A stretch of DNA of 64,000 nucleotides from a virus (IMGVR_UViG_3300031994_000063), one strand, 5' to 3'; counted from the first letter of the stretch, positions 3,964 through 57,074 are shown. Numbers and translations: made by a program. The notes: generated by a model from the letters alone, not told the origin.

Positions 3964-4045
3964 GACTTCAGACGGTTAGCTTAGTGGCTTAAAGCCTTGG
4001 ATTTTACCAAGAGAACGTAGGTTCGAATCCTGCACCACCTTAGTT
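3964..4045 (+). tRNA. tRNA-like (D-arm gctt-agtggctta-aagc, T-arm gtagg-ttcgaat-cctgc); anticodon unresolved
   Basis: Canonical D- and T-arms are visible. Acceptor pairing and anticodon loop could not be resolved by eye. Confidence 0.3.
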
Positions 4046-11108: not shown

Positions 11109-11197
11109 GTAGAGGTAAAACGTAACTGGATGACCGTCCTAGTCTACGAAACTAGTGTATCGAAAGGTACTTGTGGGTTCGAATCCCACCCTCTATA
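11109..11197 (+). tRNA. tRNA-Arg(ACG)-like with long variable arm
   Basis: Acceptor gtagagg/cctctat. Anticodon stem ctagt/actag with loop ctacgaa. T-arm gtggg-ttcgaat-cccac. Confidence 0.45.
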
Positions 11198-11216
11198 CAA
11201 AATCAAATTTCCAAAT

Positions 11217-19831: not shown

Positions 19832-19917
19832 ATACAGGTGGGGGAGTGGTTTAACCCAGCAATCTCCAAAATTGCCGTAGTTTTGTGCTACCGTAGGTTC
19901 GAATCCTACCCTGTATG
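19832..19917 (+). tRNA. tRNA-Trp(CCA) with extended variable hairpin
   Basis: Acceptor atacagg/cctgtat. Anticodon stem gcaat/attgc with loop ctccaaa. T-arm gtagg-ttcgaat-cctac. Confidence 0.5.
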
Positions 19918-20034
19918 CTATAATCCTTATCGGTGTTTACGGTGTAACAGAGCACTGCGCTTGGTCTATTAGTACCTTGAACTAACAAAAACCGTTAACT
20001 GTCGTGGTAGGTAGAGGAAGCCTACTATATTGTT

Positions 20035-23053: not shown

Positions 23054-23500
23054 CAATTTTTTATCATGGGCTTGTAATGGATTTGACAGCAATGCATTTG
23101 GTAAGAAACAAGCAGTGGGCATACACTTGAAATAGCAAAAAAAATATAAACGGCGAGAATGTTAATTCTCCTGCTTACGAGTACGCTATTGCAGCGTAAG
23201 TAAGCCGAGAGGCTAGGCTCTTAGGAACAGAACATCCTAGCATTCTTTCTTTAGTCATCTTTTAGTTTTCCTTGTTTTCACAAAACAAGGTGGTCTCAAA
23301 GGCGGTGTCTTCGGACACTTTGGGGAAGCTTGTATAATTTCTTATGGAATGGTTGTTTGGACCGCAGTTCGACTCTGCGCAAGTCCACTTAACTACTTGA
23401 AAATCAAACGCTTAACAAAATTTAAGAAAAAACTTCTTGAAAATTTTGGAACTTTCAAAAATTTTATATATCTTTGCATTGTTAAACAAAAAGACATACA

Positions 23501-23924: not shown

Positions 23925-24009
23925 CGTGGGATAGTGTAATGGTAACATGCAAGGCTCATAACCTTGAGACGGAACTCGCATCGTGTTGGTTCGAATCCAA
24001 CTCCCGCAA
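23925..24009 (+). tRNA. tRNA-Met(CAT)-like with C1·A72 and 18-nt variable region
   Basis: Anticodon stem caagg/ccttg with loop ctcataa. T-arm gttgg-ttcgaat-ccaac. 3' end tcccgcaa resembles bacterial initiator tRNA. Confidence 0.45.
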
Positions 24010-24012
24010 CTA

Positions 24013-26458: not shown

Positions 26459-26684
26459 AACTTACGATAGAGGCGTAGGGGTACAAGCGTGGGCTAACGT
26501 TAACTGAATTAACAGCTACTGAGGGTGTGAGTAATTACATCTAGGCGTAATGGTGGACACTTAGTAATAGCCTTATTGGTGTGCCGAAGTGCTCAATGTC
26601 AAGTCCTTATGGGATAAAAGAAATCTTGGCGGTTGAGAATAACGAGATTCCAGATGAAAGTACCTCCGTAAGTTTTATTAATCA

Positions 26685-26768
26685 TGGGGTGATGTAGTGG
26701 TAACATGACGGTCTCATAAGCCGTATACGCTTGAAACGCTTGCGTTGGTTCGAATCCAACCCCCTTGA
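26685..26768 (+). tRNA. tRNA(CAT)-like with long variable region
   Basis: Anticodon stem acggt/gccgt with loop ctcataa. T-arm gttgg-ttcgaat-ccaac. Acceptor pairing imperfect. Confidence 0.4.
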
Positions 26769-26773
26769 CATAA

Positions 26774-28054: not shown

Positions 28055-28145
28055 GGGCATATGGCAGAGTGGTTTAATGTGCTGAACTCTAAATTCAGTA
28101 TGGGCTTGAGAAAGTTCATCGTGGGTTCGAATCCTACTATGCTCG
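28055..28145 (+). tRNA. class II tRNA with anticodon CTA (putative amber suppressor)
   Basis: Acceptor gggcata/tatgctc. D-region tggcagagtggtttaatgt. Anticodon stem ctgaa/ttcag with loop ctctaaa. Long variable arm. T-arm gtggg-ttcgaat-cctac. Confidence 0.5.
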
Positions 28146-28244
28146 CTACAGCTAGTACAAAGTTAAAAATTGTTAAAGTTGAACTGATTATTTGGTTAGT
28201 TCACCTTTTTTTCGTACCTTTGCATCAATAAAACAATAAACAGC

Positions 28245-46094: not shown

Positions 46095-46168
46095 AATGTG
46101 GGTTCATTATTTGAACTCTCATTTTTTTTTTATACCTTTGCACCAAATTACTTAATTTATTAAGACTT

Positions 46169-47281: not shown

Positions 47282-47345
47282 TTCTGAGTTAAAAAAAGTT
47301 AAAGTATATATTAATAATTTGTTTAATTAAAAAATTTTTATATCT

Positions 47346-48803
47346 TTGCGAAAACTTATTAAATTAATAATAGAAATGGCTGACTCAAACACTTTAAATG
47401 AGAATGGCAATGTTGTTGCCAACACACCTTCTGAGGAAAATATTCCTACGCAAGAGGTAAAGACAAAAGAAAATGACTCTAACGAGAATGTAGAGAATAA
47501 AGATGAAAACAAAACATCTTCTAACACTGTTGCTACTGACAACAATGCTAATTCTTCAACTGAGTCAAAGTCCAATGAGAATGTAGAGGAGACACTTCCA
47601 GAAGACCCAAGGGATGATGATATGAAACTCCTTTACTTGGATAAAGAATTCGTATACGAGTGCATGGCTGTACCAACTCATTCTAAGAAAGAGTATCGTA
47701 TGGTTACATTCATTATGCTATGGGCTAGAAAGAATAACATTACCTATGAGTTTGATGACTTCGGTAACATCTACCTCACAAAGGGTGAACTTGCAGAGGG
47801 AGAATTTTATCCTTGTGTAACTTCTCACTTGGACACTGTTCAAGATAGGCAAGACCCATATATCTATGCTGGCGTTCCTCTTGATATTAAAACAGAGAGA
47901 ACTAAGGATGGAGACCATAAAATTAGTGTTGACTCGAATGGTGGAGCATCTATTGGTATTGGCGCTGATGACAAAGGTGGTGTCTGCATCTGTTTGACTA
48001 TGTTCAATTATGTAGATAAACTCAAGGCTTGTTTCTTCTTGGATGAGGAAACTGGATGCCACGGCTCTGACAATTTGGATGCAGAATGGTTTGAAAATGT
48101 CGGTTACGTTATTGGATTCGACTCTCCAGAACTTTATCGTGCTGCTTGGGCATGTAGCGGTGTCAAACTCTTTAGTTATGATTTCTACGCAAAGCATATG
48201 AAAGACGTATGTGACCGTTGGGGTCTTACTAAAGGATGTTTCTTCTCTGAGCCTTATACCGATGTGAAGAATATTCGGGAGAAAACGGATATTATCTGTA
48301 TGAATTTTGGTAACGGTGGCTATAATCCTCACTCTCCTACAGAGTATACAATTATAGAGGATATGGATAGTGCTTGCGGTATGGGTATTGACCTTGTTGA
48401 TAACATTGGCTGCACACAGCATAAACTCAAGAGTACTAGCAGTTGGACTAACCATACAAATAACACATACAAGCGCAACGCTGATGGTACATACAAGTGT
48501 ATCACAACTGATGACACTGAATTGCTTCGAGACCTTGGGGATAACTGCCGTAAAAGCAATTATGGATTTAGTAGCCAAACTACTCGTACAACCAACACAA
48601 CCACTACAGCCACTACAAAGAAAGAAGATGAACTCAAGTTTGAAACAGTCAAGTATATTGTCAATCGCTATGATTCACATATCCTTGGCATCAAAGAAGA
48701 TGTTCTTGAGGCGGTTAAGGCTTTGTGCGAAAAGTCTAAAGTAGAATTCAGTGAATTCGAAAAGGTTATTAATGATAAATTTAGTAACGAAATTAAATTC
48801 TAA
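47346..48803 (+). CDS. M20/M42-type metallopeptidase-like protein with low-complexity N-terminus
   Basis: CVTSHLDTVQ (HxD), GADDKGGV (GxxDDKxG) and FFLDEETGCHGS (catalytic EE) motifs. Asn/Ser/Glu-rich first ~90 aa. Confidence 0.55.
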   Translation: MRKLIKLIIEMADSNTLNENGNVVANTPSEENIPTQEVKTKENDSNENVENKDENKTSSNTVATDNNANSSTESKSNENVEETLPEDPRDDDMKLLYLDKEFVYECMAVPTHSKKEYRMVTFIMLWARKNNITYEFDDFGNIYLTKGELAEGEFYPCVTSHLDTVQDRQDPYIYAGVPLDIKTERTKDGDHKISVDSNGGASIGIGADDKGGVCICLTMFNYVDKLKACFFLDEETGCHGSDNLDAEWFENVGYVIGFDSPELYRAAWACSGVKLFSYDFYAKHMKDVCDRWGLTKGCFFSEPYTDVKNIREKTDIICMNFGNGGYNPHSPTEYTIIEDMDSACGMGIDLVDNIGCTQHKLKSTSSWTNHTNNTYKRNADGTYKCITTDDTELLRDLGDNCRKSNYGFSSQTTRTTNTTTTATTKKEDELKFETVKYIVNRYDSHILGIKEDVLEAVKALCEKSKVEFSEFEKVINDKFSNEIKF

Positions 48804-48814
48804 CAAAACGATTT

Positions 48815-51301
48815 ATGATAGGTACTAATATAAGAGGAATCAGACACTTGTTTAGGGTGTCTGATTACTCTCTTAGAAAGATTTTAGTTAGGGCTGGAGA
48901 ACATGGTTTTGACATTTGTGAGGTTTTAAAGACAAACCCAAATTCACAGATTGGTGAAAAACTGTTCATTTTCAATAATTGGTTTAATAGTCACAACTTC
49001 GGAACGTCAACCTTGGCTAGTCTTTCGAAAGAGATTGCGAATGATTTACAATCCATTAGCCATCCTAGGTTACTAGAGGTTAGTAAAGCATCAACTGGGT
49101 TTGGCGATTATGCTAGTATTCTGACTGAAATCACTCTGTTGCCAGAATCTTTCGATAAAGATTATCAAGCATTTTTGAAGGAAAATGCAAAAATGATTAG
49201 AAGCCTCTCAGATAAGTATGGTTTAAACCCAAATGATATACAATGCAAGAGATTGTATATATATACCGATGGCTCTAAGAATTTTTTCCAATGGGCTGTT
49301 GATGTATATTACAAGGCACATTGTTCTATGAGAACTATACACAATATCTTGTTATGGAATGAATATTATAAACAGTTGACAAAAAAACTTTCCAAGGGTA
49401 CAATAACTGCATATACTACACAGAGTAGCATAAACGACCTTATGGAAGAGTTGTCAATATTAAGGAACGAGAAAAGAGTTAATGACGCGATTAACGAATT
49501 TAACACAGTCCAGAAAAAATTGTTGAGAAACAACGAATTATCTGATACCGATAAAAAGACCCTTGCAAGATTCTCTAAACTTTCAGAGATAAAGAAAATA
49601 AACTTTATCAAGAAAGTGTCTACGATTGATGATTTCAATGAACTTATGCGTCAGATGAGGCATGTGACAAGTGTTCATTTTGACTGGAACAAAGACTCCT
49701 TTATGGATTTCATCAATAATGTTGAGGGAATTAATTACAAGGTAATATTTGAAAACGATTATGTAGTCTTGGTTAAAGTTGATGACTACGACACGATAAA
49801 ACAATTGGGTAAGACCACTAACTGGTGTATTTCTAAAAACAAAACATATTGGAATCAATATGTCGGTAACACTCATGGTAAATCTACCCAGTATATGATA
49901 TTTGATTTCTCAAAGTTAGAGGATGATAAACTATCCATTATTGGATTTACAACCACTCACAACAAAGGCATTACATCAGCGCATAATTTCATTAACGACA
50001 ATCTAATGGATGTTGGCCACAATCCTAACGCAACTATGCTCAAATCATATTTGGCTAGATTTGATGGTAGGAATAGCATATATAGTGTGCTGCAAAATTG
50101 TGGTATTGACATAACACTTGTTGCACATTATGATAGACCTCAATATCAGTGGGATTATGACCATTTCATGTCGTACCTTTACGAATGCGTAGATAAAAAC
50201 AATGTTGACATAATCAAACACGATGGAGATAAACTAGTACTCTCTGTCCGTGATGAGAACATCAAATATTTGTTAGGTGATGCCTACATGGATAATATTT
50301 CGTCAGATGATTATGAGTTACAGCACATCATATTTGCAGATTTTTCTATCAGCCAATATGATTCAAATAAATTGATGTTTGCCATAATATATGACGGTGG
50401 TTGTGGGGAAGATTATCCAAGCAACGTATTCAATGAGTCATCTACCCAGACACGTGCCAATTTCGATGGCAAACTGATTGAGTTTGGCGTACCTTACGAT
50501 ATTATCAGAAGGACTGATGATATTGACAAAAAAGTAAGGAATGCTTACGCATCGTTTAACACTGAGGTTTTAAAGGAATGCATAAAAGTTGACAAAAAAT
50601 GCTTGCATAGAGCAATGCATGAGTATTTTGACCAAGGCGATAATTATTCCTTCATCAATTCATCACTCGTAGATTATTTGTCTTTCGATTATCTAGATTT
50701 GGTATATGACAATGGCCATTATCTTGGAGAGTATATGGATTCCTCATATATTGCTGAAATACTGAAGAACTTGTTTAACCTTCTGAAAGGTGCTTCTAGA
50801 CAATTGTATAGGAATGCAATTCTTGAAAAACCTAGTGAAGAGAGAATACATTTGTTCTATGACGAAAAGATACCTAATCGTGATGATGTTATGTATGTTG
50901 GCTACTATCTTTTAATAAAACGTATCTTGGTCAGTGAAAACAACAGTAACAAAGTGAATTTCAATACAGCCTATGTAAAATTATTGAGTAACATTTTCAA
51001 CTCAAGCCTTAAGGGAGACCTTATAAAAGAGTTTATGTTTATGATGCTTAATAATTTGGATATGTCTAGTAAAAGGGAATCACCGTCATATATCGTTAAC
51101 TATTTCATTAGATATGGTGATGAAGAAATGCAAGAAGCAATTAAAAAACTTGCTGATAGGTATGAATGGATAAAACCAGTTTATGAAAATGCTTTGAAAT
51201 CAAAGAAAGAGCGTGAAGATTTCATTTCTCGCAATTCTGGCGCATTTGTAACCATTCCAAACATTACAGTATCAAGATTTGTAGATGACGCACCATTCTA
51301 A
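48815..51301 (+). CDS. large hypothetical protein (828 aa), paralog of the 51635 gene
   Basis: Shares block TNWCISKNKTYWNQYV..QYMIFDFSKLEDDKLSIIGFTTTHNKGITSAHNF with GWCIAREESYFKSYV..QYFLFDFSRKESDAFAHIGFTVEGGTGIVEAQTCHNY in the next gene. Confidence 0.55.
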   Translation: MIGTNIRGIRHLFRVSDYSLRKILVRAGEHGFDICEVLKTNPNSQIGEKLFIFNNWFNSHNFGTSTLASLSKEIANDLQSISHPRLLEVSKASTGFGDYASILTEITLLPESFDKDYQAFLKENAKMIRSLSDKYGLNPNDIQCKRLYIYTDGSKNFFQWAVDVYYKAHCSMRTIHNILLWNEYYKQLTKKLSKGTITAYTTQSSINDLMEELSILRNEKRVNDAINEFNTVQKKLLRNNELSDTDKKTLARFSKLSEIKKINFIKKVSTIDDFNELMRQMRHVTSVHFDWNKDSFMDFINNVEGINYKVIFENDYVVLVKVDDYDTIKQLGKTTNWCISKNKTYWNQYVGNTHGKSTQYMIFDFSKLEDDKLSIIGFTTTHNKGITSAHNFINDNLMDVGHNPNATMLKSYLARFDGRNSIYSVLQNCGIDITLVAHYDRPQYQWDYDHFMSYLYECVDKNNVDIIKHDGDKLVLSVRDENIKYLLGDAYMDNISSDDYELQHIIFADFSISQYDSNKLMFAIIYDGGCGEDYPSNVFNESSTQTRANFDGKLIEFGVPYDIIRRTDDIDKKVRNAYASFNTEVLKECIKVDKKCLHRAMHEYFDQGDNYSFINSSLVDYLSFDYLDLVYDNGHYLGEYMDSSYIAEILKNLFNLLKGASRQLYRNAILEKPSEERIHLFYDEKIPNRDDVMYVGYYLLIKRILVSENNSNKVNFNTAYVKLLSNIFNSSLKGDLIKEFMFMMLNNLDMSSKRESPSYIVNYFIRYGDEEMQEAIKKLADRYEWIKPVYENALKSKKEREDFISRNSGAFVTIPNITVSRFVDDAPF

Positions 51302-51310
51302 AAAAATAAA

Positions 51311-51343
51311 TGGTGTGTAAGGTATTTACACACCACATTTTTA
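51311..51343 (+). terminator. rho-independent terminator
   Basis: tggtgtgtaa-ggtattta-cacacca followed by ttttt. Confidence 0.5.
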
Positions 51344-51634
51344 ATCCACTTTGATTATGAAAACATTTACGTTGTTTATTGCTATTGCATTTACCGTTTT
51401 TTTTATAAACGATAAATTCAGTAAAGCAGTCAGGGTTATCGCCTTCAACGAAGATGAAACAAAACATAGTGCAATTTATTCATTTATAATGATGATGATA
51501 ATCATTATCTCATGGACAATATATTTTTCTTTCTTTTAATTTTTATTAACATAAAAAATTTTGTAGAGTAGAAAAATTATTATATCTTTGCACAAACAAA
51601 CGGAAAAAAAACAAATTTAATTCTTTTATTAAAC

Positions 51635-53695
51635 ATGACTTATAATAAAAAACAGATGCAGCCTTTGATTGATAAGTATGGCATCAATCCAGAGACTAAC
51701 AAATTGTTTATTAAAGTATGTGAAATGTTCGATGGTCAGTCAAACTACCAGATTTGGGCTGTTAGAATGATATTCTCTCAGTCAATGACCTTTGAAGAGT
51801 TGGAAACCATTCACACTTGGATTACTACCAACAGTAACATGATTAACAAACTCGAAAAGCAGAATGTTGTATCATACTCTAATAAAAGTGGAGTTGCCCA
51901 GTTACTTAAAGAGATTAAGGGTCTTGAACGTATTGCTTTTGTTAAGAATATTATCTCTCATTTCAATACTGAGCAGAAAAAGATTCTGACTGAATCTATT
52001 TTGGGTAAGGAATACACTCCAATTGAGGCGTATGAGAATGCAAACCTTAAAAAATGGTATGACGTTTTCAAGACGTTCAATAAAAAACCTATGAATATTA
52101 AGAACAAGTTCTACAGCAGTAGTTCTGCTCTTAAAAACGCTGCATCACTCCATCAAGCAATTCTAGATTGTCTCAACCAAACTTATGATTGGAAAGAGGG
52201 CAAAGAAGACCTTCTTGCTTACATTGAACACAATGCAAAAGACTGCGAAGTGGTTTTCAATGAAGGACCATGCGTGGTAGTTTATGTTCCGTCATTCCAA
52301 TCTAGTCATAATTTGTGTGGTAACGGACGTACTGGTTGGTGCATCGCTCGTGAAGAGTCCTATTTTAAAAGTTATGTGACAAGTAAATCGAACCGTAGTC
52401 AATATTTCTTGTTCGATTTTAGCAGAAAAGAAAGTGATGCATTTGCACACATTGGTTTTACTGTTGAGGGTGGAACTGGCATTGTTGAAGCACAAACTTG
52501 CCATAACTATCCAATGATTAATCCTTACACACAAGGCAACGAAAGTCTAAGCATTTATAATGTATTCGATAAGTTCGGCATTAAAATGAGCACTTTCATG
52601 CGTTTGCCTAAAGAACTAGGATTCACTTGGAATATTACCGATATTATAGCGATGGTCAAAAAATCTCCAGAATCATTTGCTATTGCATATGAGCGCGATG
52701 GACGTTTGATTATAAATGTCCTTAACTCTAGAGTGTTCAATGATTTTGTTAAGAAAACTTTTATCAAAACCAACAATTTTAACGCCATTGACAATAACAA
52801 CAAAACCTATTTGTTTATGGATTTTAACCTTCCGATAAACAATGAAAGGTCACTGATTGCAATGCAATATCGCAAAGATATGTATGGGTCGTTGTCTTTG
52901 TCTAGGATGTATGACATTTTTGGTGCTGATATTTCAAAAGAAGGATATTTATCAAAAATTGGTATTTCTACAGATGAGTATCTAAATCGTGAGGCAATTG
53001 ACCCATCAATCCTTCTTCACAAACTCATTGATGAGAACGATGAGATTGGGGCCATCAAGTTGATTGAGAAAGAACGTGGTAAAATAAATGTTAACTATGA
53101 ATTTAACCAGAGAATTCCTATTTTCTCAGCAATAACTAACAAAATGTTCAAACTTTTTGACACTATTGTTAATTGTGAAGGATTTAACTCACAAATTGAG
53201 GATGGTTTTGGCGAAACTTTGCTTCAGTCATTAATCTATTTGCATGGAAGCGATGAGGTTGCAAGTTCAGAAGAGGATAACAAGATATTGACTAATATGA
53301 TTAAGTCAATCCTTTCTAGTAAAAACTTTAATCTTGCGGCAAAAGACATCAATAACGATTGCGCTCTTAATACTGCTTGTGAGTATACAAATGAGGTCTG
53401 GATTGTAAAAGAACTAGTTTCCAATAAAAGTGTTGATGTAAACGTTGTTAACGAATTTGATTGCACGGCTGTCGGTAATTGTATCAGAAACAACAACCTT
53501 GAGGCGCTTAAAGTTCTTGGACAACGACCAGATTTGAAAATAAGAAAAGAGGATAAAAGTTTGGCAAAAGAATTCGGTATTAATTTGGACGAATACATAA
53601 AGCCAACTGACTCAATATTCGGAAAGTATACTACTGAAAAAGTAGGTGCTTTCGCTGAAGAAGAGGAATTGGAACTAGAGCTAACAAGAGCATAA
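51635..53695 (+). CDS. large hypothetical protein (686 aa) with C-terminal ankyrin-like repeats, paralog of the 48815 gene
   Basis: Shared ~80-aa block (see 48815). C-terminal DGFGETLLQSLIYLHGSDEV ... DCTAVGNCIRNNNLEALKVLG fits the ankyrin repeat pattern. Confidence 0.55.
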   Translation: MTYNKKQMQPLIDKYGINPETNKLFIKVCEMFDGQSNYQIWAVRMIFSQSMTFEELETIHTWITTNSNMINKLEKQNVVSYSNKSGVAQLLKEIKGLERIAFVKNIISHFNTEQKKILTESILGKEYTPIEAYENANLKKWYDVFKTFNKKPMNIKNKFYSSSSALKNAASLHQAILDCLNQTYDWKEGKEDLLAYIEHNAKDCEVVFNEGPCVVVYVPSFQSSHNLCGNGRTGWCIAREESYFKSYVTSKSNRSQYFLFDFSRKESDAFAHIGFTVEGGTGIVEAQTCHNYPMINPYTQGNESLSIYNVFDKFGIKMSTFMRLPKELGFTWNITDIIAMVKKSPESFAIAYERDGRLIINVLNSRVFNDFVKKTFIKTNNFNAIDNNNKTYLFMDFNLPINNERSLIAMQYRKDMYGSLSLSRMYDIFGADISKEGYLSKIGISTDEYLNREAIDPSILLHKLIDENDEIGAIKLIEKERGKINVNYEFNQRIPIFSAITNKMFKLFDTIVNCEGFNSQIEDGFGETLLQSLIYLHGSDEVASSEEDNKILTNMIKSILSSKNFNLAAKDINNDCALNTACEYTNEVWIVKELVSNKSVDVNVVNEFDCTAVGNCIRNNNLEALKVLGQRPDLKIRKEDKSLAKEFGINLDEYIKPTDSIFGKYTTEKVGAFAEEEELELELTRA

Positions 53696-53751: not shown

Positions 53752-53834
53752 TCTTTTAATTTGTTTTTTAAGAAAAAAAAACATATCTTTGCAAAAAGAA
53801 AATTTTATGTTAAACAATTAAAACCTAATTTGTT

Positions 53835-55250
53835 ATGAAAATTTATGATTATGGTAAAATCAAGACTTGTTTAATATGCGGAAGCATTAATGGGAATGTT
53901 GACCATTTTGTTAAAATGATTGTTGGTAGTCTAACCGACATAAGAAAGTATAAAGTCGAGCAGCACCCAAAAGAAATAGAAAGACAAGAAAGGATTAGAA
54001 GAAAACAAGAAGAAGAGGCTCAAGTATTGGCTGATAGACGCGACCCATTTGGCATAGGTGGCGGCATTCCACACCCTCATGACCAGCATGGCAATACCAT
54101 TAGAAGGTATGCGAAGAAAATAAGCAAAATGCCGAGGTCTTGTGGCTATCTTTTAGATAACACTGTGTTAATTGTCAATGGCTCAAATACATTTGGTCAA
54201 AACGATTTGAAATATTATTATGACAAATTTAATATGCTAAATGATGTGTTAGCCGACAATAACACGCATATCCTATTTGTGAGAGGTAATGATGACCCTA
54301 AATATTTTACGGATGAATTACTTAATCTTAGTAATGTGAAAACTATTCAAGATTATTCTGTAATTAAACTAAGCAAGTTCAACTGTTTATGTATCGGTGG
54401 TCAAGTTTCATTGGACAGACTTTGGAAATCTGAGCAAGAAAAAAGAATAGGTAAGAAAATGTTTTGGGAAAATGAGAAGATGATGTTTGACGAAAATGCT
54501 ATAAACGAAATATTTTCCAAGCACAAAATATCTTGTATTGTTACACCTAGTTCCCCATCATTTGCATATCCAGGAACAAACGTTTTCAAGAAAAGCCCTT
54601 GGGTCGCAAAAGATAAATCTCTTTTAAATGACCTTAACGATGAAAGGGTAATGATGGATAGAATATATAATAAAATCATTGAAAGTAAAAGCAAGCCTTA
54701 TATGTGGGCTTACAGTAGGTTTGATACTTCTAATCAATCTATGATTAATGATATGTTATTTCAATCATTGTGTCCGTTTCAGTTTCTCAACTTTAATGAC
54801 ACAGCCGCAGAATTCTTTAACATCGACTTTTCTAAACAACTTAAAGAAAATGAATTTTCGTCAAATGGCGAAATGGTTAAAAAATCTTATACCATTTCAT
54901 CGTCAATAGGAGATTTTAGGAATGCCTTTAATGATGATGACATTTTTGGTGTAGCTGACGAAGAAATTGACGAAGATGACCATGCTGAAGAGGGTAATGA
55001 ACAAGAAGAAATGGGAGATTTTGAAATGGCAAATCCAAATATGGAAATGGCGCAAGTTGAGGCTGAAAATGTCAATGAAATGAATGGAGTACCGTATTTA
55101 GGTGATACGATACATTGGGAACCTGGACGCTATGCAATACTTGAAGATAATATAGCAGCACCAACTCTTGATATGGATGTGGCAACTGCTGAGAGAGCAG
55201 TGCCCTATGAAATATTTCGAGAAAGCGTTGACGTAGCATTAAGGCAATAA
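53835..55250 (+). CDS. metallophosphoesterase-like protein (degenerate motifs), acidic C-terminus
   Basis: ICGSINGNVDHF and HILFVRGNDDP loosely resemble calcineurin-like phosphoesterase motifs (GDxHG, GNH[DE]). C-terminal 100 aa very acidic. Confidence 0.3.
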   Translation: MKIYDYGKIKTCLICGSINGNVDHFVKMIVGSLTDIRKYKVEQHPKEIERQERIRRKQEEEAQVLADRRDPFGIGGGIPHPHDQHGNTIRRYAKKISKMPRSCGYLLDNTVLIVNGSNTFGQNDLKYYYDKFNMLNDVLADNNTHILFVRGNDDPKYFTDELLNLSNVKTIQDYSVIKLSKFNCLCIGGQVSLDRLWKSEQEKRIGKKMFWENEKMMFDENAINEIFSKHKISCIVTPSSPSFAYPGTNVFKKSPWVAKDKSLLNDLNDERVMMDRIYNKIIESKSKPYMWAYSRFDTSNQSMINDMLFQSLCPFQFLNFNDTAAEFFNIDFSKQLKENEFSSNGEMVKKSYTISSSIGDFRNAFNDDDIFGVADEEIDEDDHAEEGNEQEEMGDFEMANPNMEMAQVEAENVNEMNGVPYLGDTIHWEPGRYAILEDNIAAPTLDMDVATAERAVPYEIFRESVDVALRQ

Positions 55251-55265
55251 ATGTAGGAGGAGAAA

Positions 55266-56033
55266 ATGGCACAAACCAATAGCAAATTTTATTCGTTGAT
55301 GGTTGTCGGCGAAAACCCTAAAAGCATAGTGGAAAAATATGGTTCTGAATACAAAACAGAACCATATGTAAAATACAAATATCTAAATGCTAAAAAATAT
55401 CAAGATACAGCAATTAAAACACTTGATACTATGTTAGCAAATATTGACAAAATAGGTTTACCGCCAACAACCAAAGAGGCTTTGGAAAATAGGCTAGACA
55501 CCATCAAAAAACTATCTCCATTTGAATACTACAGAGAACTTACCGATGGTATGTACTATAATGAAAATGGGGATGCATTATCAGAAGAAAACCCAAACGT
55601 TAAGTATAATACTTGTAGGATAGGGCGCAATTTCTGTATACCATTGAAATTGAAAGATGGGTCAGAATCATATAGCGCACTTGCTAAAGACGTTGATTGG
55701 GATGCGATGAATGGCGCTAACAAAGAGGTATATGAATCTGCTTGGGAACTTGTGGTCGATGGTAGAGAGCCACAGAACGACCAAGAGAAGACCATTTACG
55801 AATCAATGAAGGATAGGGAAGCATACTTTGAGAACTTCAAGTCAAAAGAGTCTTACGTTACCTATAGCACAGCATACTGGAATTATGCCTACGCTGATAA
55901 GAATGGATGGGTTGATGTTGACGATGATGGAAATGAGGAAAGATGGATAAATGAATTCTATTCTAGATTCGTTGAAAAACTGAAACCAAATGACCTTGTA
56001 TCCATTTTTGAATGTTCAATCAATAATGGTTAA
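55266..56033 (+). CDS. hypothetical acidic protein
   Basis: 255-aa ORF. Terminator follows at 56047-56081. Confidence 0.5.
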   Translation: MAQTNSKFYSLMVVGENPKSIVEKYGSEYKTEPYVKYKYLNAKKYQDTAIKTLDTMLANIDKIGLPPTTKEALENRLDTIKKLSPFEYYRELTDGMYYNENGDALSEENPNVKYNTCRIGRNFCIPLKLKDGSESYSALAKDVDWDAMNGANKEVYESAWELVVDGREPQNDQEKTIYESMKDREAYFENFKSKESYVTYSTAYWNYAYADKNGWVDVDDDGNEERWINEFYSRFVEKLKPNDLVSIFECSINNG

Positions 56034-56046
56034 AAAAATTAAAAAA

Positions 56047-56081
56047 ACGTGAGATAATTTTGCTGTCTCACGTTTTTTTCA
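56047..56081 (+). terminator. rho-independent terminator
   Basis: acgtgagata ... tctcacgt followed by ttttttt. Confidence 0.55.
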
Positions 56082-56114
56082 TATATTTGCATTAACGTAA
56101 AATGTAAACTAATT

Positions 56115-57074
56115 ATGGCTGAAAATACACTGTTATTTAAACAATTTAGAAGTAAATTTGTCAAAGACTTCAATTTGCCCATCCAAGTTGTCCAATCGCC
56201 TTATTTTGACGAACATATAAAACTACTTGAGGATGATTGTGGGGCAAATACAAAATATCTCACCTTGTTAGAAACTGTTAGAGATAAATTTGACGGTAAT
56301 ATGCAGAAATTCCTTGAGTATCGGCATATCATTGAAGACCAAATATTAGCCTATATACTAAATTCTGAGGCTTACAAGGAGTTTAATAACGATAAGAACA
56401 CAATTCCCTCAGAAACACCAATTGTAGGCTCTAGAGAACTCTATACGAAAGAACAAGATGGATGCTTTTTCATATCCTATGATATGATTAAGGCAAATTT
56501 CCAAGCATTGAGGTATGCAAATCCAGCAATTGTAAGGGATTGCAACACATATGAAGAGTTTATTGGCAAGTTTACTGACATCGAATATTTTGCCCATGCA
56601 AAACAACTTAGGCAAGTAATATTCGGTAAACTAAATGGCAAAAGAACTGCTTCGATTGAGAAATTAATTTCAAATAGATTCGCAAAAGAATATAGTCAGA
56701 GATTAGGAATATATGGATTTGAACCATATTCAATTAAAACTGATGAAATTATCTTCAAGTTTGATTGTAGTGAATCAGAATTTGAATCTTTTCACTCTTC
56801 TGACATAGAATTCAGTGGATTTAAATTCCGTGTGAACAAATTTAAACTTATGTCTCAAGACTTCAAACGTGGAGTTTCTGACAGAATTGTCACGGCATAT
56901 ATTAAAGAAGATTATTTAAATGGCAGGAAACACACTTTACATTGCGTTCCTGACACTTATTACCCACAAGTGTATAAACTACTCAATGGGATGGAAATAA
57001 CGCCATCAGATTTAGTTTTCTACTATGAACACGAATTGGCTAAATTTATGTATCCGTTAGAAATGATAAAATAA
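56115..57074 (+). CDS. hypothetical protein
   Basis: 319 aa. Promoter cacgtttttttcatatatttgcattaacg upstream. Confidence 0.5.
   Translation: MAENTLLFKQFRSKFVKDFNLPIQVVQSPYFDEHIKLLEDDCGANTKYLTLLETVRDKFDGNMQKFLEYRHIIEDQILAYILNSEAYKEFNNDKNTIPSETPIVGSRELYTKEQDGCFFISYDMIKANFQALRYANPAIVRDCNTYEEFIGKFTDIEYFAHAKQLRQVIFGKLNGKRTASIEKLISNRFAKEYSQRLGIYGFEPYSIKTDEIIFKFDCSESEFESFHSSDIEFSGFKFRVNKFKLMSQDFKRGVSDRIVTAYIKEDYLNGRKHTLHCVPDTYYPQVYKLLNGMEITPSDLVFYYEHELAKFMYPLEMIK

Follow-up and report, generated by a model that had tools for sequence, protein, structure and literature searches.

A syntenic pair of paralogous proteins of huge gut phages with a tandemly duplicated core that is probably related to PcfJ

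Two adjacent genes in a viral DNA of 64,000 nucleotides (IMGVR_UViG_3300031994_000063; the whole stretch is referred to here as the window) encode large proteins of 828 and 686 amino acids (aa), denoted here ORF1 and ORF2 after their open reading frames (ORFs). As far as can be judged from sequence, the comparisons described below show that ORF1 and ORF2 form an ancient, syntenic pair of paralogues in phages of the gut that have ~360-425-kb genomes and Bacteroidota-type promoters. With moderate confidence, we place the module shared by the two proteins beside PcfJ, so that the pair would represent a new, tandemly duplicated variant of the known but uncharacterised PcfJ-like domain family that is retained in abundant huge phages. 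The ORF1/ORF2 family of ~1300 representatives (at 50% clustering) is invisible to the Pfam, PHROG and NCBIfam models, and the placement beside PcfJ ties a large part of the megaphage 'dark matter' to a domain found widely among phages and plasmids of the conjugative type.

Paralogy, domain architecture and distribution

ORF1 and ORF2 lie on the + strand at 48815-51301 and 51635-53695, respectively, as the first-pass annotation of the window had them. The paralogy proposed there is borne out as well: BLASTP aligns the two proteins over ~330 aa (ORF1 124-434, ORF2 4-319) with 26% identity and E=3e-26, far beyond chance, indicating that they are true paralogues. The shared domain, which had been put at ~80 aa, turned out to be much longer, with BLASTP, the multiple alignment and hhalign delimiting a common module of ~450 aa (ORF1 118-566, equivalent to ORF2 1-450). 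Both conserved motif blocks recognized in the annotation are present, one as WCI[SA]-x4-Y-x3-YV (ORF1 337-350, ORF2 235-248) and the other as QY..FDFS-x9-IGFT-x5-GI (ORF1 359-386, ORF2 256-283); the spacings given for them, x4 after WC[IA] and x6-8 in the second block, needed correction, to one residue longer and to x9. The segments of the two proteins are as follows.

48815-51301, + strand: ORF1, 828 aa, paralogue 1; stop codon TAA
48815-49165, + strand: ORF1-specific N-terminal extension, aa 1-117; first ~40 aa well conserved, mean pairwise identity 32%
49166-49714, + strand: ORF1 shared helical domain, aa 118-300; isoelectric point (pI) 9.4; invariant FNTxQ[KR]K
49715-50059, + strand: ORF1 alpha/beta core, copy 1, aa 301-415; T-x-W-C, QYxxFDFS, GFT and N394; putative divergent PcfJ-like domain
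50096-50512, + strand: ORF1 degenerate core, copy 2, aa 428-566; W-C motif lost, F-x-DFS kept; hmmsearch independent E-value 2e-6
50513-51298, + strand: ORF1 fast-evolving C-terminal region, aa 567-828
51635-53695, + strand: ORF2, 686 aa, paralogue 2; stop codon TAA
51635-52225, + strand: ORF2 shared helical domain, aa 1-197; pI 9.0; AlphaFold2 helices over residues 5-200
52226-52564, + strand: ORF2 alpha/beta core, copy 1, aa 198-310; beta-beta-alpha-[W235 C236]-alpha-beta-beta-beta
52571-52984, + strand: ORF2 degenerate core, copy 2, aa 313-450, identified by hhalign and hmmsearch
52997-53554, + strand: ORF2 ankyrin-repeat region, aa ~455-640, ~five repeats; Pfam matches at aa 554-630, outer limits set by sequence reading and conservation

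Copy 1 of the core is readily aligned between the two families (hhalign E=3e-38). The segment downstream of it is, according to profile comparisons, a degenerate tandem duplicate of the core. The copy 2 regions of ORF1 (~428-566) and ORF2 (~313-450) match each other at E=2e-16, and each matches copy 1 of its own family (hhalign 4.8e-13 for ORF2, 7e-7 for ORF1) as well as that of the other family (6.6e-12 for ORF2 copy 2 against family-1 copy 1, and 9e-7 for ORF1 copy 2 against family-2 copy 1); the duplication is confirmed by plain hmmsearch. In copy 2, the T-x-W-C motif is lost and the F-x-DF strand is kept, and the pI of this copy is 9.3 in ORF2 and 4.3, that is, acidic, in ORF1. When 31 shared regions drawn from the two families are aligned, 29 columns are invariant, and 15 of these persist in 64 full-length proteins, with an identity between the families of 16-24%. 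The invariant polar constellation consists, in the ORF2 numbering, of N111/T112/Q114, S164, K190, T233, W235-C236, Y247, Q256, D261, E266, T276 and N291, and these residues are absent from the degenerate copy 2. In the AlphaFold2 model of ORF2 1-325, which was obtained with a predicted local distance difference test score (pLDDT) of 92.7, residues 5-200 form the helical domain and residues 205-314 the alpha/beta core, with the invariant W235-C236 located at the start of the second helix of the core.

The regions that flank the common module differ between the paralogues. ORF2 ends in ankyrin repeats, in agreement with the first-pass annotation: Ank_4 is matched above the cut-off (23.7 bits against 22.7) and Ank_2 at E=2e-5, the best matches of this region among PDB sequences are designed ankyrin proteins, and 28 of the 64 full-length family members match Ank_2, with a best E-value of 6.7e-19. 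The C-terminal region of ORF1, which has no Pfam match, is the fastest-evolving part of either protein, with a mean pairwise identity of 24% compared to 58% for the core. The possibility that it is a degenerate ankyrin region was considered and rejected, its resemblance to the ankyrin region of ORF2 reaching only P=0.04. The N-terminal extension of ORF1 has no counterpart in ORF2 and no Pfam match. Neither protein contains hydrophobic segments, and ORF2 also lacks a signal peptide.

At E<=1e-3, 295 relatives of ORF1 and 421 relatives of ORF2 were found, on contigs of up to 425 kb, with the same contigs recurring in both lists; a profile search brings the family to 1307 representatives at 50% clustering, the best 150 of these matches having been seen individually. 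At every related locus examined, namely those on phage contigs of 392 and 417 kb and on one 98-kb contig of a metagenome-assembled genome (MAG), the pair occurs in the ORF1-ORF2 order. The last of these, JBGVIL010000178.1, from a faecal MAG labelled 'Bacilli bacterium', carries the only match in 185,579 cellular species genomes; as it has counterparts of both ORF1 and ORF2, arranged as in the window, it is probably a fragment of a huge phage that was mis-binned into a bacterial MAG. Among GenBank phages, there was no match at the DNA level and no protein match at 1e-5. The window itself encodes no other members of the family, and no bona fide PcfJ domains, besides ORF1 and ORF2.

Probable relationship of the core to PcfJ

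The first-pass annotation could assign no motif to the shared domain. This still holds for database searches, in which the shared region of both proteins had no match in Pfam, PHROGs, NCBIfam, PADLOC or among PDB sequences. GNAT-fold acetyltransferases count among the closest known systems, and the complete GNAT fold, including the acetyl-CoA-binding motif A, was not found. The structural comparison that had been suggested as a check was carried out with the confident model of ORF2 1-325, and Foldseek detected no structural neighbour of this model in the PDB but PcfJ-like neighbours in BFVD. We consider it likely, from the combination of sequence profiles and modelled structures, that the core is a far-diverged member of a PcfJ-like superfamily and falls outside PF14284 as defined in Pfam. 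Given that the direct comparison of the core with PcfJ is not significant, the case for this kinship is based on the structure and on a set of bridging proteins.

For comparison, PcfJ of the Enterococcus faecalis plasmid pCF10 was modelled with AlphaFold2 from a comparatively shallow alignment (pLDDT 86.9), yielding the arrangement beta-beta-alpha-[H373 C374]-alpha-beta-beta-beta-alpha. When the element lists of the two models are set side by side, the order of the elements and the position of the Cys in the ORF2 core and in PcfJ are identical.

ORF2 core (AlphaFold2): b205-210, b213-217, a221-228, [W235 C236], a236-249, b254-261, b272-278, b282-287, a307-314
pCF10 PcfJ (AlphaFold2): b348-350, b353-356, a361-371, [H373 C374], a378-385, b390-396, b399-410, b413-418, a428-446

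The top-50 BFVD lists of the ORF2 and PcfJ models have six entries in common, two of which are annotated as PcfJ-like (hypergeometric P ~1e-16, for a library size of ~350,000 and for draws that are not strictly independent).

The bridging proteins come from megaphages. When the threshold of the tblastn search with ORF1 was relaxed to E<=1, marginal matches to the core appeared in the phage genomes LR756502 (642 kb) and LR745206 (635 kb), and these two proteins along with 14 relatives from IMG/VR contigs of up to 483 kb make up a set of 16.

Locus L085, 3101-4963: bridging protein of LR756502 (tblastn)
Locus L086, 3284-5236: bridging protein of LR745206 (tblastn)
Loci L087-L100: further bridging proteins (IMG/VR)

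These proteins share the overall plan of ORF2, with a helical domain, a core and C-terminal ankyrin repeats (Ank_2 5e-14), and have Y..W..YV, QYY.Y.F and IG.T in common with the ORF1/ORF2 family. Unlike ORF1 and ORF2, they contain a single core (the copy-2 profile finds copy 1 only), with His-Cys in place of Trp-Cys, and no second paralogue was found within their 8-kb loci. Their T-[RS]-H-C-I motif corresponds to the His-Cys of PcfJ, and the PcfJ-type T-I-E is kept as well. The profile of the bridging set matches the ORF1/ORF2 family at 7e-22 in hhalign (~1e-24 in hmmsearch with the family profile); with the PcfJ domain it reaches 2.4e-4 in the same register, across 67 columns, compared to 0.38 for the reversed control. 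The single-core His-Cys version with ankyrin repeats looks like an architecture intermediate between PcfJ and the ORF1/ORF2 family, and possibly the ancestral one.

The PcfJ signature, invariant in 53 sequences, reads E-G-x-x-L-H-H-C-V-G ... Y ... F-I-R ... T-x-E ... Q-x-[RQ]-G-x-x-N. In the ORF1/ORF2 family, the Cys that opens the second helix, the Tyr within that helix, the Thr in the fourth strand and the Asn after the fifth strand are all retained in register, and the Glu is found in the ORF2 family only; the signature of the family is instead T-x-W-C-I ... F-D-F-S ... G-F-T ... A-[HQ]-x-x-x-N. Like ORF1 and ORF2, the proteins of the PcfJ family (PF14284; PHROGs 7484, 8470, 3169, 9653 and 16315) have a helical region before the core, and both families are found in mobile elements and share BFVD neighbours. 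The extra, degenerate copy of the core and the basic helical N-terminal domain set ORF1 and ORF2 apart, the N-terminus of pCF10 PcfJ being beta-rich.

Several results weigh against this kinship and would be expected if the resemblance to PcfJ were convergent, that is, if the core were a generic beta-beta-alpha-alpha-beta-beta-beta sandwich in an orphan family without meaningful relatives beyond the megaphages. PF14284, to which pCF10 PcfJ as a positive control scores 148.9 bits (gathering cut-off 25 bits), is reached by no member of the family: it is absent from the results for ORF1 and ORF2 at E<=1, is not among the 25 most frequent Pfam families of the 31 shared regions (E<=10) or of the 64 full-length members (E<=1), and is missing from the full lists of the two bridging megaphage proteins at E<=10. 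The direct hhalign comparison of the core with a profile of diverse phage PcfJ proteins gives P=0.08, and P=0.05 when secondary structure derived from AlphaFold is added, over 77-79 columns (0.3-0.8 for reversed controls); with a single PcfJ sequence, or with an alignment restricted to Enterococcus PcfJ, there is no signal. The Foldseek template modelling scores (TM-scores) to PcfJ-like entries are low, at 0.18-0.23, the link from the bridging profile to PcfJ has an hhalign probability of just 44% at P=2.4e-4, and the E-G, the His preceding the Cys and the Arg of the PcfJ signature are absent from the ORF1/ORF2 family, which makes it uncertain that the chemistry is shared. We nevertheless regard convergence as unlikely, because the bridging proteins of the His-Cys type match both families in the same register while the reversed control does not, six neighbours recur in two BFVD lists, and the secondary-structure elements that carry the Cys, the Tyr, the Thr and the Asn are equivalent in the two families. 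The non-significant direct alignment follows this register too (C-C, Y-Y, T-T, N-N), which is also the one seen by eye.

Possible functions of the paired proteins

We tentatively propose, at somewhat less than an even chance, a role for ORF1 and ORF2 as early host-interaction proteins of the cytoplasm, in which one conserved module is directed to two targets through the divergent C-terminal parts. Under this proposal, both proteins would be made early in infection from promoters recognized by the host RNA polymerase, ORF1 together with an M20-like peptidase, and would act in the cytoplasm rather than in the virion. Copy 1 of the core, along with the helical domain, is a candidate active or ligand-binding site, possibly reliant on the invariant Cys, because the polar constellation, at whose centre stands a Cys at the N-terminus of a helix, has remained unchanged in the two paralogues; copy 2 would be a structural duplicate. 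The C-terminal parts, that is, the ankyrin repeats of ORF2 and the fast-evolving region of ORF1, would choose the host or phage protein that is acted upon, so that the pair could function as effectors of the host-takeover or anti-defence type with two target specificities.

A host-interaction or anti-defence role appears plausible because of the host-type promoters, the fusions of the module to ankyrin, leucine-rich repeat (LRR) and variable regions of diversity-generating retroelements (DGRs), and the overlap of pcfJ with a gene of the AcrIIA9 family. Fusion to target-binding parts has occurred repeatedly: ankyrin repeats are found in ORF2, in the distant megaphages and in Marseillevirus, and LRRs in one phage protein, the Marseillevirus ankyrin protein (A0A481Z016) and the phage LRR protein being structural neighbours in BFVD. 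As in ORF2, the C-terminal ankyrin repeats of such phage and giant-virus proteins are attached to a non-repeat module and are presumed to bind proteins. A further example is ANKp, which Jahn et al. reportedly described in 2019 in phages of sponge symbionts. Those phage ankyrin proteins for which a role has been described are small secreted proteins whose action is on eukaryotic cells; ORF2 differs from them in having neither a signal peptide nor a hydrophobic segment and in carrying the 450-aa PcfJ-like module. PcfJ-like motifs have also been noted upstream of DGR variable regions (PMC5758913). In pCF10, pcfJ (NC_006827 35873-37983; L003 15874-17984) overlaps by 10 nucleotides (nt) a gene for a 'Cas9 inhibitor AcrIIA9 family protein', with a gene of the DpnD/PcfM family close by, such that pcfJ looks like a part of an anti-defence gene cluster.

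Other observations speak against such a role. PADLOC, which covers defence systems, yielded no match at E<=1 for either protein, all five PHROG families matched by PcfJ are labelled 'unknown function', a literature search found nothing on the function of PcfJ, and the early timing is deduced from promoter motifs alone.

Two different functions deserve consideration alongside the host-interaction one. ORF1 and ORF2 could be internal or ejection proteins that travel inside the capsid and leave it together with the DNA, in the manner of polyvalent proteins, rather than being synthesized de novo at an early stage of infection. The inner-body proteins of phiKZ-like phages typically form paralogue families, and the module seems to have expanded into such families in big phage genomes, given BFVD matches to three paralogues in Myoviridae sp. 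ctWb16, to at least four with accessions beginning A0A248SJ, and to others in uncultured Caudovirales. One BFVD neighbour, from Pseudomonas phage PA5oct, is labelled 'structural protein' (E=0.023), and the occurrence of the PcfJ-like domain in both phages and conjugative elements is a phyletic pattern that has been described for proteins delivered together with DNA (PMC5512222, where PcfJ is not mentioned). However, the PA5oct match is weak, and the genes are embedded among those for tRNAs, nucleotide metabolism and RNA repair, with host-type promoters, rather than among virion genes. A match to a known virion domain, which according to the first-pass annotation would speak against an effector role, was sought, and neither protein showed similarity to known capsid, tail, portal or internal-protein families or matched a structural PHROG. 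Packaging in the virion is, in our estimate, quite improbable.

Alternatively, the module might be a nucleic-acid-binding factor, with DNA, RNA or tRNA as the ligand, that serves the replication or transcription of the phage or RNA repair rather than acting on proteins of the host. Both proteins have a basic helical domain with the invariant FNTxQ[KR]K, copy 2 of ORF2 is basic as well, the conserved N-terminus of ORF1 resembles, by eye, a helix-turn-helix, and 30 tRNA genes as well as genes for a CCA-adding enzyme and an RNA ligase belong to the conserved neighbourhood. Copy 2 of ORF1 is, however, acidic, and ankyrin repeats usually bind proteins, so we find this function doubtful, and we continue to favour the host-interaction proposal.

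A broader version of the host-interaction proposal, which we consider speculative and rather unlikely to hold in full, is that the PcfJ-like module defines an unrecognised superfamily of enzymatic effectors that rely on the second-helix Cys and are aimed by fused ankyrin, LRR or DGR-diversified regions. On this view, ORF1 and ORF2 would represent two versions with different targets, each modifying proteins (or nucleic acids) of Bacteroides/Phocaeicola as infection begins, with copy 2 as a pseudo-enzyme scaffold. If true, the carriers of such effectors would include conjugative plasmids, tailed phages, megaphages and giant viruses, and ORF1 and ORF2 would belong to a lineage of huge phages that ranks among the most abundant in the gut. 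The Cys-centred constellation, the tandem of an active and a degenerate copy and the recurrent targeting fusions provide testable hypotheses for the PcfJ-like domain.

Locus organization, promoters and tRNA genes

The features around ORF1 and ORF2 are the following.

47318-47348, + strand: Bacteroidota-type promoter motif, with 28 nt between its end and the ATG at 47376; probably drives the peptidase-ORF1 transcription unit
47376-48803, + strand: M20/M28-like peptidase-like gene (phrog_4191 'peptidase', E=2.6e-30)
51311-51335, + strand: terminator-like hairpin located 10 nt past the ORF1 stop; 11-bp stem, then a T-rich tail
51357-51539, + strand: small gene, 60 aa, two hydrophobic segments, between the ORF1 hairpin and the ORF2 promoter
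51560-51590, + strand: ORF2 promoter motif of the Bacteroidota type, TTTG-N-TAnnTTTG, ending 45 nt before the ATG at 51635
53835-57074, downstream of ORF2: three genes of 471, 255 and 319 aa

The first-pass annotation had assigned each of the two genes its own promoter, which holds for ORF2 and fails for ORF1. ORF1 starts 11 nt after the stop codon of the peptidase-like gene, and there is no -7 box between 47342 and 48815; because of this short gap and the lack of the box, ORF1 is probably co-transcribed with the peptidase-like gene from the promoter at 47318-47348. The peptidase-like gene, which additionally has weak matches to Peptidase_M20 and to dipeptidase models of NCBIfam, more likely starts at the ATG at 47376 than at the TTG at 47346 given in the ORF list because the promoter overlaps the latter. 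Its position directly upstream of ORF1 is retained in two relatives (L001 and L002). Synteny of the peptidase gene with the module in the distant megaphages was also considered and rejected, the upstream gene there showing no similarity.

The 60-aa ORF between the paralogues, which was missed in the first-pass annotation, is a genuine, conserved gene for a small membrane protein because it is 72% identical to a 63-aa gene at L002:12475-12666 whereas the flanking ORF1 orthologues are merely 45% identical. A fusion of ORF1 and ORF2 by recoded read-through, suggested by their common frame and by a tRNA with a CUA anticodon, was rejected in view of the TAA stop codon of ORF1, additional TAA stops and the terminator-like hairpin. 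The genes of 471, 255 and 319 aa have no Pfam, NCBIfam or convincing PHROG match, and their place between ORF2 and the CCA-adding enzyme is retained on the 392-417-kb contigs. The gene order kept on the 392- and 417-kb contigs is DHFR, two small genes, the peptidase, ORF1, (the small ORF), ORF2, the three genes just mentioned and the CCA-adding enzyme. No virion genes are found in these surroundings, which include tRNA genes and the genes for DHFR, the CCA-adding enzyme and RNA ligase, all of them encoded in the window.

The window has a G+C content of ~34%, with nearly all long ORFs on one strand. TTTG and TAnnTTTG are the -33 and -7 consensus elements of the Bacteroides primary sigma factor. 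The motif TTTG-N17-23-TAnnTTTG is present in 31 copies, compared to 5.5 expected (none of 100 shuffles reached 31), with 26 of the 31 on the + strand and typically 23-45 nt 5' of gene starts. Examples of the motif are located at

46110-46140
47318-47348
51560-51590
53760-53791
56059-56089

An extended consensus, TTTGG.TATT.CAATTTTTTTTCATATCTTTG, is common to many of the copies and suggests a single dominant promoter class in this genome region. In genome size, source and promoter type, the lineage that carries ORF1 and ORF2 resembles the Jug phages, which have genomes of 360-402 kb and infect Bacteroides/Phocaeicola (PMC12880540); the main text of the paper on these phages mentions neither ankyrin nor the ORF1 and ORF2 genes.

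In the first 40 kb of the window (2264-39464), ARAGORN detects 30 tRNA genes and one tmRNA gene. Those that call for comment are

23068-23388: tmRNA gene with the tag GENVNSPAYEYAIAA (ARAGORN)
28055-28146: tRNA with a CUA anticodon, an amber suppressor, labelled 'Pyl' by ARAGORN
3970-4041, 11109-11198, 19832-19918, 23925-24010 and 26683-26769: atypical tRNAs, with a two-base anticodon or 86-90 nt long and neither Leu nor Ser

Despite the tRNA with the CUA anticodon, TAG is the stop codon of 6 of the 54 long ORFs in the window. The atypical tRNAs comprise one for which ARAGORN gives an undetermined, two-base anticodon, and the Arg-ACG, Trp and two Met tRNAs, which are 86-90 nt long. The latter may contain introns or long variable arms; group I introns have been reported to be frequent in Jug phages (PMC12880540).

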